NCBI GenBank assembly: GCA_965198005.1
Contig: CBDAOI010000004.1
Location: 1,984,001 to 2,048,000 of the forward strand
DNA from: Spirochaetia bacterium
GTDB taxonomy: Bacteria > Spirochaetota > Spirochaetia > SZUA-6 > Bin103
DNA length: 64,000 bases
Reading direction: 5' to 3'
Part shown: piece after piece, positions 15,001 to 18,000 of the stretch
Layout of the letters: each line of letters starts with the position of its first letter
Position numbering within the stretch: position 1 is the first letter of the stretch
Position numbers: made by a program

Positions 15001-18000
15001 CTCGCCGAGCTGTTCCTCCAGGCCGATGCGCTGCCGGCCGAGTACCGCACCATCATCAAGGCGTACCTGCGCAGCGTGATGACGCACGCGGCCCAGAAGG
15101 AGCGCCTGATCGCTAGCGCCGCCGAGCCGGAGCTGCCGTAGGGAGAGGGAACCGAGAGCGCAGATCGCGCGACGAAAGTGCTTGACTGCTAGGAACCGAG
15201 TGCGAAAGCGCCTGGCAACCAAGTACCAGGAGGTGCGATCGATGGTGAGCTTTCAGGTTTCCGGTCAGCCGGCGCTGCGGTTCAAGGTGGCGGCGCGCTC
15301 GGTGCTGTTTGCCGGCAGCCGCCGCGGGCAGGTGGAGCAGCCGGTCTGCCGTGCGCTGGTCGAGCGGTTCCGCCGCCACGGGTTCGGGTTCTTCGTGGGC
15401 TGCGCGACCGGCGTCGATGCGGCGTTCCGCGCGGCGCTGGCCCACTCAGCGTGCGGCCCCGACGAGGTGTTCGTCGGCTGCGCGTTCGGCCAGCGCGCAC
15501 GGCGCTGCCGGGCCGAGGGGCTGTTCGCCTCGGCGGTGGTGCCCGAGGGCATCCCGCCCAACGCAGCGCTGGCGCGGCGCACCCTGTGGCTGGTCAAGCG
15601 CAGCTCGCTGGTGGTGCTGTTTCCCGAACGGCCTGCCGACCGGCAGTGGGGTCCGGGCTCGCGGCTTGCCTATCGCTCGGCGCTCTACCACCTCAAGCCG
15701 ACTTTCGTGGTGGCCTCACGGCCGCCTGTCGCTCCGGCGTTCTGTCGGGTGGCGGCCGCCGACCTGTTCGCCACGGTCGACGGCTACTGGGTGGTGCCGC
15801 ATACCTTCCGCGACGGGTTCTGCGACGACGAGTACTGAGGGGTCGAGAGCGGAGCATCCGCTTCGAGTTGACCGGCAAGGCCACGCCCATGCACAGCCTG
15901 GCGCTCGCCGACCTGCTCGGTCGCCTTCCGGCCCCCCCTCCGGACCAGCGAAGCAACCCACAGCCCCCCGACCTCGTGTCGTGGTCTGTGGGCCGTATGC
16001 CACCCGTGGCGCCAGGGAGGGCGCCACGGGTGGAGGCCACCGATTACGAACTCTGCCGCGGCCGATGAAGCGGCGGCATGACGTGGCAGCGCTACCTCTC
16101 ACGTCACCACCATCCGCGCCGGCACCACCGGCCAACCGTCACTAGCGGTGCGCCCGCGGCATCAGCACAATGGCGATACCTGCGATCCGGCAAAAGGGCC
16201 CATTGGGCGATTCAGAATGCGTCCCAAGGCCCCTTGTTCGCGACCGACCGTGTCTGCCCACGAACGGACGACGCGTCAGTCGTGTGATGAGGCTTCGCCG
16301 AGTCGGTCTGCGGTGCCGCGGTGCCCTGGCGCTGCTTCGGGCTGACCGGCCACGTCACGCCCATAACGAGCGCGGCGCTTGTCGACCTGGTCGGCCGCGT
16401 TCCGGGCGCGCCTCCGGAGTAGGACGCGGATGTTACTACCGAATAGCGAAGGTATTGTAAACAGCCGGTGCAGCTCTGACTCGCGCAGGGGATCGAGAAT
16501 AGCCACCAGGCTCCCAGTCCACGACGTCCTGTCGCGGGCCGGGAGCTGCATGCCACCCGTGGCGCCATGGAGGGTGCCTCGGGTGGAGGTCACGCTGCAT
16601 CAGACGTGATACCGCGGGGGGTGCCGGTCGGCGCTGTTGACAGGGTGGCCGCGCTCGCAAGAGAGTGCACCGTTAGGGGTTCGGCGAATGCAGATGATGC
16701 GCCCCGACGACCGCCAGCGCGGTGGCCGGTGATGTTCGGTGACGTCCGAGTCGTTGACAGGGTGGTCGCCTCCATAGCAAGCTTGCCTCGCCTGGGGTGG
16801 GGTTCGACGGATCGATGATGACGCGCCATGACGACAGTCAGGACAGTGGCCGGTTGGTCGGTGACGTGCGAGTCGTTGACAGGATGGCCGCGTCCATAGC
16901 AACCTTGCCTCGCCTGAGGTGGGGTTCGACGGATCGATGATGACGCGCCATGACGACAGTCAGGACAGTGGCCGGTTGGTCGGTGACGTCCGAGTCGTTG
17001 ACAGGATGGCCGCGTCCATAGCAAGCTTGCCTCGCCTGAGGTGGGGTTCGACGGATCGATGATGAAGCGCCATGATGACGCGCCAGGATGGCGTAAGCGT
17101 AGTGACCGGTGGCCGGTGATGTTCGGTGACGTGCGAGTCGTTGACAGGCTGGTCGCGTCCATAGCAAGCTTGCCTCGCCTCGGCTTCGACGGATCGATGA
17201 TGACGCGCCATGATGACGCGCCAGGATGGCGTAAGCGCAGTGACCGGTTGGCGGTGACGTTCGGTGACCGCCGAGTGGTTGAAAGGGTCGTCGCGCCCAC
17301 GCTATCATGCCTGGCCTGGGGCGACGGATGCCGATGAAGCGCCATGATGACGTGCCAGGATGGCGTTGGCGCAGTGACGGGTTGCCGGTGACCTTCGCTC
17401 ACCCCGGTGACCCCCACGAGTCGTTGACGGCGCGCCGCGCCTATGCTAGCTTGCCTCGCTTGGGGTCCGACGGATGGTCATGAAGCGCCATGATGACGCG
17501 CCAGGATGGCGACAGCGCAGTGACCGGTTGCCGGTGACGCCGCGCGATGAGCGCGTTGGGTCGCTGTTGACACGGATTTGGGCGGCGGCGTACAATCTTC
17601 GGCGAATGGGCACCGACAGCATCCAGCCCAGTCGCCGGCCAGCGGTGACGAAGCGCGATGAGCGGGTTGGGTCGCGCTTGACACGGATTTGGGCCGGCCT
17701 CTACACTCGTCCGCGAATGGGCACCGACAGCATCCAGCCCAGCCGCCGACTACCGACTACCGACTACCGACTACCTAACCGCGCGACAGCCAGCCGCTCG
17801 GCGCCGGTGCTGACCGCGGCACCATCGATCCGCGCGGCACACAGCCGTGCGTGTGGCGGCGGACCGCGTCGGCCGCAACCTCCACCAGTCTACATCAACC
17901 GGCGTTGCCGGGACTTCAGAAGAGAGGGGCACATCTGCGCCCGACCGAGGGGGTGCAAAATGATACTCAAAGAGCCGCACGCGCGCGCGGCGTGAGCCGG

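Follow-up and report, generated by a model that had tools for sequence, protein, structure and literature searches.

The closest described counterparts of the repeat arrays analysed here are the promoter tandem repeats (PTR/VNTR) of Mycobacterium tuberculosis, which lie at dop, lpdA and cysG as 54–58 bp units placed 12–29 bp before the gene, and for which an engineered second copy of the lpdA repeat is reported to have led to more biofilm (PMC12817950). Both systems consist of head-to-tail copies with a promoter inside, stand in sense immediately ahead of the gene and vary in copy number, in M. tuberculosis between strains. The mycobacterial repeats are three unrelated single loci, whereas the present arrays belong to one family of 149 units at 52 loci, are built from ordered, distinct unit types and exchange their module between loci. 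In Escherichia coli, rrn P1–P2 are two co-directional sigma-70 promoters ~100 bp apart that serve one operon; they resemble the two gene-proximal unit types described below, but are non-homologous and fixed in number rather than members of an amplifiable repeat family. Metazoan rDNA spacers carry repeats of promoter copies or parts upstream of the true promoter, which vary in number, evolve in concert and are transcribed toward the gene. These spacer promoters and repetitive enhancers of the intergenic spacer (PMC2120851) provide a further analogue. The likeness lies in promoter copies, variable number, homogenisation and direction of transcription, but rDNA spacers serve eukaryotic RNA polymerase I, and with sequence and machinery unrelated the analogy is one of design only.

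Two families of dispersed repeats also invite comparison. Mycobacterial interspersed repetitive units (MIRU) are reported to insert at start codons, with their ORF coupled to the gene (PMC12548453). They share with the present arrays a dispersed tandem arrangement, one orientation relative to transcription and a short ORF whose stop and start overlap by 4 nt; unlike them, the arrays here lie at least 73 nt upstream, carry promoters and show overlaps between successive units only. Since the arrays end 73–2483 nt before the match to the downstream gene, a MIRU-like repeat with start-codon insertion and ORF coupling was rejected. Correia elements can supply promoters to neighbouring genes. As repeat-enclosed elements of Neisseria (PMC5039591) they are, like the present units, abundant intergenic repeats of ~100–150 bp, but they have terminal inverted repeats, occur in either orientation and are non-tandem, and none of these traits is found here.

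Known promoter tandem repeats such as those of M. tuberculosis are isolated loci, and here one module is present in ~150 copies, up to seven deep. A literature search that left most subscription journals outside its reach returned no paper on tandem promoter repeats before genes for family-5 solute-binding proteins (SBPs) or in sponge symbionts. We analysed one such array within a window, the whole stretch of 64,000 nucleotides of a Spirochaetia contig to which all coordinates below refer.

Array anatomy

The array occupies 16624–17553 (+) and consists of seven head-to-tail units of 117–145 nt, which confirms the tandem repeat noted here in the genome-wide survey. Unit borders were set by cutting at the conserved GTTGAC, which gives lengths of 117, 122, 122, 143, 138, 145 and 143 nt; TRF reports 16693–17079 (period 122, 3.2 copies, 92% matches) and 16980–17537 (period 138, 4.0 copies, 80% matches). 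Unit 1 (16624–16740) is of a distinct 'first-unit' type, labelled B, that also heads other arrays and the orthologous array of the related genome G003, and carries TTGACA (16637–16642), an 18-nt spacer and GAGAGT (16661–16666). Units 2–5 (16741–17265) are of the distal type, whose number is what varies among arrays, with TTGACA at 16754, 16876, 16998 and 17141 and, 19 nt further on, AAGCTT (or CAAGCT after 18 nt). Unit 6 (17266–17410) is the usual second-from-gene type, with TTGAAA (17279–17284), 18 nt and TATCAT (17303–17308), and unit 7 (17411–17553), the proximal type, has TTGACG (17424–17429), 17 nt and TAGCTT (17447–17452); at 17 loci the unit nearest the gene reads TTGACG-17-TAGCGT.

Unit 1 is abutted upstream by a repeated ~125-nt module (16497–16622, +), for which window 15600–16623 served as the nhmmer query. 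In the genome, 26 matches extend to the segment end; the module lies in the same orientation, at most 60 nt upstream of the array, at 8 of the 52 array loci, and also precedes the array at 39762. On the gene side, two 111-nt units of a different promoter-module family follow (17532–17748, +; TRF period 111, 2.0 copies), with TTGACA-18-TACAAT (17567–17596) and TTGACA-18-TACACT (17678–17707) scoring 11 and 10 of 12 in the sigma-70 scan; the same family forms the single promoter upstream of other SBP paralogs. A heptamer microsatellite, CCGACTA × 4.3 (17746–17775, +; TRF), whose place is taken in the G003 orthologue by another heptamer run, comes before the conserved ~190-nt SBP-cassette leader (17940–18139, +), which opens with a Shine–Dalgarno-like site and an 11-codon ORF (17960–17995). 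This leader gave 77 nhmmer matches over query positions 430–540, each followed within 250 nt by an SBP match, and 63 of them retain the Shine–Dalgarno-like site and short ORF. The SBP gene (18140–19939, +; 599 aa) matches Pfam SBP_bac_5 (E 1.5e-58), its family being confirmed by a protein-atlas comparison, and is followed by two permease genes (20365–21402 and 20928–22289, +). An 18-nt site at 17815–17832 is 83–89% complementary to the unit core and recurs in ~15 leaders, array-less loci among them; we propose no role for it.

Genome-wide distribution

A search of the 4.89-Mb genome with a 7-unit nhmmer profile (E ≤ 1e-3), with loci defined by a common strand and gaps under 400 nt, gave 149 units of 113–145 nt at 52 loci, comprising 32 arrays of 2–7 units and 20 single units. 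The genome-wide survey's note had counted 150 units, 62 loci and 31 arrays, a discrepancy that stems from the rule for merging loci. Its statement that the units stand in sense upstream of binding-protein genes is borne out: 44 of the 52 loci, among them 29 of the 32 arrays, have an SBP match (tblastn) within 3 kb downstream on the same strand, compared with ~3 of 52 expected from random placement (188 SBP loci × 3 kb, one strand of 2 × 4.9 Mb), and no antisense copy was found at any locus. One further array is accompanied by an opposite-strand SBP fragment only, and seven loci have no SBP match. Arrays mostly lie 0.2–0.9 kb ahead of the paralogous genes, the distance from array end to SBP match having a median of ~555 nt and typically measuring 500–640 nt.

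Among same-genus genomes, G001, G003, G005 and G006 hold 26, 15, 21 and 16 unit matches, as the earlier survey had indicated for these four; G007 and G008 have one weak match each, and G002, G004, G009 and G010 none. The unit was likewise not found in the sister genus (13 genomes) or in other families of the order (17 genomes). A scan of genome contigs with a loose unit pattern returned at least 116 stretches in unrelated phyla with a single match each, the pattern being too loose to show distribution.

Promoter-like signals

Across 94 distinct full-length units, GTTGAC is the longest near-invariant run (97–100%, against a mean of 85% over all columns), and of the −10 hexamer the A (95%) and the T (96%) are conserved while positions 1 and 5 are free to vary. 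The −35 is close to TTGACA, as in sigma-70-type promoters, and proximal units read TTGACG-17-TAGCGT or TTGACA/TTGAAA-18-TAGCGT/TATCAT. The distal AAGCTT/CAAGCT type fails the sigma-70 scan; at this array unit 6, with 10 of 12, is the only one of the seven units to pass, in keeping with the survey's remark that most units fail a consensus scan. The strict pattern TTGAC[ACG]-N17/18-TANNNT occurs 371 times in the genome versus 44–53 times in shuffles, a 7- to 8-fold enrichment. Arrays hold 42 of these sites in sense and none in antisense, so that 42 sites, mostly in proximal types, stand against 149 units; the figure becomes 113 if position 1 of the −10 may be any base. The strict pattern also lies within 120 nt upstream of 9 of 50 tRNA genes, where the −10 hexamers are those of the units (TAGCGT, TAGCTT and TATCAT). 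By both the tRNA genes and the genome-wide enrichment, then, the units carry the same signal as the organism's own obvious promoters.

The signal is likewise found before SBP paralogs that lack the unit, 42 of 90 full-length members having the strict pattern in sense within 1.3 kb upstream, at a density of 0.51 per locus in sense versus 0.04 in antisense. These sites are mostly 370–700 nt from the start codon, and those of array-bearing loci 340–1055 nt. Upstream of the array-less paralogs, the promoters come from five or more other conserved module families, which have only the two hexamers in common; some of these are tandem too (periods 75, ~100 and 111 nt). Conservation within the present unit is not limited to hexamers: the ATGA at profile columns 71–74 is conserved at 98–100% and conservation spans the whole unit, which exceeds what a bare promoter explains and counts against the promoter reading. 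Weighing these signals together, we favour, with moderate confidence, the interpretation that every unit represents a promoter module of sigma-70 type and that the arrays arose by tandem amplification of the promoter region in SBP cassettes. A sigma-54 reading of the spacer (TGGC...TGCA, seen by eye) was rejected, since conservation of the first G reaches only 55% and 29 of the 94 units have a gap that shifts the spacing.

RNA-library contigs

Contigs from three metatranscriptome studies cover the array; this is evidence from assembled contigs, which carry no strand, ends or levels. One piece aligns to 17064–17178 with zero mismatches, and another, 17482–17631, is unique to the locus and extends from unit 7 over the promoter that follows. 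The bins upstream of the array (15800–16534) have depths of 0–0.76 in X12, 0–7 in X19 and 411–981 in X4, summed over look-alike loci. With RNA-library contigs over it, the array is not purely the DNA-level element that the survey thought most likely. Certain contig joints leave out units (16758 to 17428 in X8 and X4, 17261 to 17405 in X8 and X12, 17549 to 17652 in X12 and X4); these may be fewer-unit variants or repeats collapsed in assembly, and were left aside.

Unit order and turnover

The units follow a recurrent order, with the distal AAGCTT type first, then an 18-nt-spacer TANNNT unit and then TTGACG-17-TAGCGT beside the gene, and this order is kept at many loci and in G001; the reading of relatives' loci covered ten. 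Between arrays, units that hold the same rank are 88.4% (rank 1) and 87.6% (rank 2) identical, versus 84.3% and 84.9% for neighbours within an array. Close relatives carry different numbers of units at one and the same locus, as in promoter VNTRs: the G003 orthologue, with an SBP 92–97% identical, has three units versus seven plus two here. The head-to-tail copies, each with a promoter and in sense upstream of a gene, likewise have the make-up of promoter tandem repeats.

Exchange between loci is seen at 17504–18303, which is 90–100% identical to a one-unit locus on C3 even though the two SBPs are only 56% identical; this sharp-ended conversion tract indicates that upstream regions are swapped among paralogs by gene conversion. 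Array presence on the SBP protein tree requires 28 changes versus 27.1 ± 1.8 for shuffled labels, and does not follow the tree. Orthologous arrays are 71–82% identical, much as their neutral-looking upstream flanks (76–78%), whereas the leader together with the coding start reaches 94%; this counts against the promoter reading. With gene conversion at work, conservation argues only weakly for function.

A less likely reading is that the arrays are a neutral by-product, with one working promoter per cassette (the proximal unit, or here the 111-nt units) and the remainder functionless duplicates from slippage or unequal crossover, kept similar by gene conversion among paralogous upstream regions. 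The sharp-ended tract, the indifference of array presence to the SBP tree and the divergence of orthologous arrays to the same extent as their flanks all fit such an origin, as do the poor −10 of the distal units and the make-up of the surrounding intergenic DNA, a mosaic of other repeated modules. Harder to reconcile with it are the intact −35, which is retained in distal units too, the preservation of unit order across loci and in another species, the RNA-library contigs on distal units and the complete lack of antisense copies.

Proposed mechanism

Returning to the arrays as amplified promoter modules, we tentatively propose the following course of events. Each unit would comprise TTGACx, a spacer of 17–19 nt, a −10 whose second base is A and whose sixth is T, and the first ~75 nt of the transcript, with all units pointing at the gene. 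The two gene-proximal units would be the working promoters of the cassette, and the distal ones, with TTGACA and a weak −10, extra copies that probably supply further starts and whose number would shift by unequal recombination. A transcript from any unit would continue across the units after it and a ~0.5-kb leader, which holds the conserved short ORF, before entering the SBP gene. If transcripts from every unit reach the gene in this way, the array would bring in more polymerase than one promoter alone; because tandem promoters can interfere with one another, however, a larger number of units does not necessarily yield more transcript. Gene conversion may pass the module among paralogous cassettes and so keep the units alike. 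We infer that the units fire and that their number alters expression.

On this footing, the stacked promoters of variable copy number suggested in the genome-wide survey's note gain from the conserved −35, the tRNA-like hexamers, the position shared with paralogs and the copy number of the orthologue, and lose by the poor distal −10. The note had also offered regulator sites, to which nothing points, and a decaying duplicated leader segment. A duplicated leader agrees with a unit made of promoter and first leader nucleotides; decay does not, since recombination keeps the copies similar.

A more far-reaching version, which we regard as doubtful, would make the arrays a dispersed, self-homogenising promoter-array family, a bacterial counterpart of rDNA spacer promoters, in which gene conversion acts across a transporter family of ~190 loci, unit number sets the expression of each paralog and ATGA-linked short frames keep ribosomes on an unusually long leader. 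The setting is a sponge symbiont with dozens of paralogous uptake genes, among which upstream modules are exchanged independently of the coding sequences. Should unit number tune transcription, the expression of each member of a very large transporter family could be set by simple, heritable and reversible means, which would bear on how a symbiont adjusts its nutrient scavenging. The arrays also form a natural series, from one to seven copies and with three unit types, for testing whether tandem bacterial promoters add up or interfere.

Alternative readings

Translation of the leader modules is an unlikely explanation. Here, a unit frame with a conserved GGGG and then ATG would end on the ATGA of the next unit, and the coupled short ORFs would keep ribosomes on the leader and guard against termination or decay in the manner of MIRU. 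The ATG at columns 71–73 is present in 93–94 of 94 units and A74 in 98%, of 49 unit ORFs 22 terminate precisely at the ATGA of the following unit, the period modulo 3 is skewed (26/16/7), columns 79, 82 and 85 vary at silent third positions and a 12-nt insert is in frame. Against this, the variation has no overall three-base periodicity (0.123/0.126/0.136), ORF lengths vary widely (13–240 codons), GC hardly changes with codon position, Pfam gives no match, and the modulo-3 skew comes from just three main period classes (122, 126 and 134) that are common by descent. The Shine–Dalgarno-like site of the unit is moreover weak next to the GGAGG-type site that belongs to the short ORF of the cassette itself.

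Quite improbable, in our estimation, is a DNA platform of the enhancer or silencer kind, in which the units would be bound by a regulator or a nucleoid protein and the promoter likeness would be incidental. Conserved blocks beyond the hexamers, a regular spacing of 113–145 bp and a perfect 10-bp palindrome, GCAAGCTTGC, that overlaps the distal-type −10 would suit such a platform. No candidate regulator was identified, however, the best-conserved block coincides exactly with a −35 that is correctly spaced from a −10 anchored by A and T, and plain promoters stand at this place in array-less paralogs. We give very little credence to a mobile miniature element (MITE/REP-like) inserting upstream of SBP genes, for although the family is dispersed with ~85% identity between loci, restricted to part of one genus and frequently near transposase genes, it is without terminal inverted repeats (the only inverted pairs join the unit core to the 18-nt leader site) or hairpin (z = 0.19 and −0.12), its orientation is strictly one-way, its arrays spread as ordered multi-unit blocks, and the transposases between array and gene are later insertions; a MITE, REP or Correia-like mobile repeat was rejected on the first three of these counts.

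Two further candidates were discarded. RNAalifold gave an energy of 0.0 and no pairs for unit-phased and junction-phased alignments on both strands, and Rfam yielded no match at gathering scores or at E ≤ 5, upholding the survey's report of no consensus RNA fold and no Rfam match; on these results and the fold z values above, a structured RNA leader or riboswitch was rejected. A protein-coding repeat was dismissed on the GC content by codon position, 0.62/0.66/0.65 for the array versus 0.55/0.43/0.60 for the SBP gene; Pfam returned no family for the array at E ≤ 0.001, and unit lengths are not multiples of three.

Other arrays in the window

The window holds three more arrays. A six-unit array at 8829–9628 (−) lies upstream of an SBP gene (6337–8295, −) and has TTGACG-17-TAGCGT as its proximal unit. 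The three-unit array at 39762–40072 (+) ends 58 nt before the start codon (40108) of a gene for an NAD-dependent epimerase, which has its own Shine–Dalgarno site; its last unit reads TTGAAA-18-TATCAT (40020–40049), and the arrangement may represent promoter capture, which we count in favour of the promoter reading. The fourth, at 57533–57846 (−), is degraded, with three matches, and is separated from its SBP gene (53592–55382, −) by a DDE transposase gene (56305–57477, −).

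Array structure and anatomy of the putative promoters

The array at 16624-17553 of the window (+ strand) comprises seven head-to-tail units of 117, 122, 122, 143, 138, 145 and 143 nt, for which TRF reports one period of 122 (3.2 copies, 92% matches) and another of 138 (4.0 copies, 80%). Directly 3' of it lie two 111-nt units of another family (17532-17748, +), then a microsatellite of the heptamer CCGACTA (17746-17775, +), a leader of ~390 nt (+) and the gene of a 599-aa family-5 solute-binding protein (SBP; SBP_bac_5, E 1.5e-58), with two permease genes downstream. On balance, we favour the reading of the array as a stack of co-directional sigma-70-type promoters that arose by tandem amplification of the promoter region of an SBP cassette and that recombination among paralogous loci has spread and kept similar. 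We are least sure that the distal units fire, or that the number of units has any effect.

Columns are conserved at 85% on average across 94 distinct full-length units, and GTTGAC (97-100%) forms the longest stretch with almost no variation. Eighteen columns after it comes a hexamer that keeps A at base 2 (95%) and T at base 6 (96%) while bases 1 and 5 vary; these two are the most important -10 positions of sigma-70 promoters. On this anatomy the units fall into three types (-35 hexamer, spacer in nt, -10 hexamer): TTGACG-17-TAGCGT; TTGACA or TTGAAA-18-TAGCGT/TATCAT; and TTGACA-19-AAGCTT (or 18 nt to CAAGCT). Their order is fixed, with the first type adjoining the gene (17 loci), the second usually before that and the third, of variable copy number, outermost; one array in G001, another genome of the genus, has the identical order. 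Units of equal rank are more alike across arrays (88.4% and 87.6%) than neighbours are within an array (84.3% and 84.9%), which argues that arrays spread as blocks rather than originating separately at each locus.

Contigs of three metatranscriptome studies, which come without strand, ends or levels, align to the array as well as the leader. One piece of 115 nt matches 17064-17178, a stretch present exactly twice in the genome, with no mismatch, and a 150-nt piece matches 17482-17631, unique to this locus, with one mismatch, spanning unit 7 through the first 111-nt promoter. Such pieces place the array in RNA libraries and suggest that something is transcribed across unit boundaries; the signal over the array may instead reflect DNA carry-over.

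Genome-wide distribution

The host, a sponge-associated bacterium judging by the sequencing runs that contain the stretch, has a genome of 4 contigs (4.89 Mb, 66% G+C). Searched with a profile built from the seven units, the genome yields 149 matches (E<=1e-3) at 52 loci: 32 loci are arrays of 2-7 units, and the other 20 have one unit each. Arrays in the window stand at 8829-9628 (-), 16628-17539 (+, profile matches), 39762-40072 (+) and 57533-57846 (-). A same-strand SBP match follows within 3 kb at 44 of the 52 loci and 29 of the 32 arrays; of the remaining loci one has an opposite-strand SBP fragment only and seven have no SBP match. Arrays usually end 500-640 nt before the SBP match; where the distance reaches 1.2-2.5 kb, the intervening ORFs checked include transposases (IS110 and DDE_Tnp_1 families), and three others gave no Pfam family. 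SBP paralogs, searched by tblastn with the window's protein, number 188 loci, 124 near full length. In a 4.9-Mb genome this amounts to extreme expansion of a single SBP_bac_5 subfamily, with copies 40-60% identical and a gene G+C of ~53% against 66% genome-wide.

The two hexamers are not confined to the arrays. The genome has 371 sites with the pattern TTGAC[ACG]-N17/18-TANNNT, where shuffles give 44-53; 42 of the 371 lie within arrays, every one in sense. The pattern stands within 120 nt before 9 of 50 tRNA genes, with -10 hexamers that include TAGCGT, TAGCTT and TATCAT; before some tRNA genes TTGACA is paired with a CAnnnT hexamer. Units lie within 1.3 kb upstream of 33 of 123 full-length SBP paralogs, and among the 90 without units the strict pattern is found upstream in sense at 42 and almost never in antisense. 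Most of these sites are 370-700 nt before the start codon, and those of array-bearing loci 340-1055 nt upstream.

The single promoters of unit-less paralogs belong to several other conserved upstream module families. One has TATGAT or TATTAT (at least 14 loci); a second, GTTGAC-17/18-TACGGT, is itself tandem with a 75-nt period, at 55972-56135 (-) before the SBP gene 53592-55382 (-) and likewise at no fewer than 10 further loci; the 111-nt family of the window is a third, and TACAAT and TACACT also occur as -10 hexamers among the families. That these families stand at SBP promoters and share with the 126-nt unit only the two hexamers suggests that the unit is one of several interchangeable cassette promoter modules, and the most amplified of them. 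An epimerase gene with a ribosome-binding site of its own starts 58 nt after the end of the array at 39762-40072; it looks as though this gene had recruited the module as its promoter.

Turnover and alternative readings

The orthologue of the window's SBP in G003, of the same genus, is 92-97% identical, and its locus has the same first-unit type and conserved leader but three units and no 111-nt units. Between the two genomes the leader and coding start are 94% identical, the arrays 71-82% and the upstream flank 76-78%. Within the genome, 17504-18303 is 90-100% identical over ~800 nt, covering the leader and first ~50 codons, to a locus on contig C3 (894.5-895.3 kb) that has one unit against seven and an SBP only 56% identical; outside the tract identity is 42-82% further into the gene and at most 65% upstream. 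This is a gene-conversion tract; the likeness indicates that the upstream region, together with the part for the signal peptide, was converted recently. On a FastTree phylogeny of 113 SBPs, 31 with arrays, array presence requires 28 changes, as many as with shuffled labels (27.1 ± 1.8): descent does not tie the upstream module to the coding sequence. Five of the 11 genomes of the genus (this one included) carry the unit, which is absent from all 30 genomes searched outside it; SBP matches, which are not copy numbers, are also many in the unit-bearing G001 (128) and G003 (62), and amount to 35 in G007 and 6 each in G009 and G010. Fast array divergence between orthologues and active gene conversion would also fit a neutral reading in which one promoter per cassette works and the other units are functionless duplicates, which we think unlikely though worth keeping in mind.

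A plain promoter leaves unexplained the unit's second most conserved block, an ATGA ~28 nt after the -10 hexamer, preceded by GGGG. In 22 of 49 cases the reading frame that opens at one unit's ATGA stops at the ATGA of the following unit. The units could thus form coupled short ORFs, by analogy with those described for MIRUs (PMC12548453); against this, variation lacks three-base periodicity, and the skew in period modulo 3 comes down to three period classes of common descent. Other readings can be set aside: for a structured RNA, RNAalifold gave no pairs on either strand in 94 distinct units and 81 junction-centred segments, two units are no more stably folded than their shuffles (z = 0.19 and -0.12) and Rfam has no match; for a protein gene, the long ORFs across the array have flat codon-position G+C and no Pfam family; and for a mobile miniature element, the unit lacks terminal inverted repeats and occurs in a single orientation only.

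For a stack of promoters, the closest described kind is the promoter tandem repeats of M. tuberculosis, 54-58 bp long and variable in copy number before dop, lpdA and cysG (PMC12817950). By comparison, the units here are longer and of three ordered types, form one family dispersed over 52 loci, stand far upstream ahead of a long leader, and serve a gene family of ~190 loci between which they are exchanged. In the literature covered, with most subscription journals outside its scope, we found no account of tandem promoter arrays before SBP genes or in sponge symbionts.

Leader and flanking DNA

Directly 5' of the SBP start, a leader of ~190 nt (17940-18139) is kept at 77 SBP loci. It opens at 63 of them with a Shine-Dalgarno-like site and a short ORF (17960-17995 in the window), whose product is MILKEPHARAA at 35 loci and MILKEP at 11; the heptamer TGAGTCA and, ~30 nt from it, the complement TGACTCA lie in the leader as well. 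This leader resembles a leader-peptide control element for the entire SBP family. Further upstream, an 18-nt site at 17815-17832 is 83-89% complementary to the unit's GGAT...ATGA core; it recurs with 0-1 mismatch in ~15 leaders, including some at loci that lack arrays. Behind the promoter units, each orthologue has a heptamer microsatellite, but with its own unit: CCGACTA here and CACTCAC-like in G003 (1740-1830 of its orthologous locus, L003), and CCGACTA-type runs also lie behind the 111-nt family at other loci.

The DNA 5' of the array is likewise repetitive, with a ~700-nt segment (15601-16300) in ~8 close copies and a ~165-nt segment (16256-16422) in at least 20, in both orientations; the ORF at 15309-16145 gave no Pfam family. 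Two exact tandem duplications (100% matches), 208 nt x 2 and 168 nt x 2, stand at 2300-2717 and 6525-6861; the latter lies in frame (56 codons) inside the SBP gene 6337-8295 (-), fits the extra length of its 652-aa protein, and may be a real recent event or an assembly artefact. The region is rich in mobile DNA, with a tyrosine recombinase gene (11347-12327), an IS66-family transposase gene (23437-25020) and a match to a domain of group II introns (RF02003, 51.1 bits, 25546-25723).
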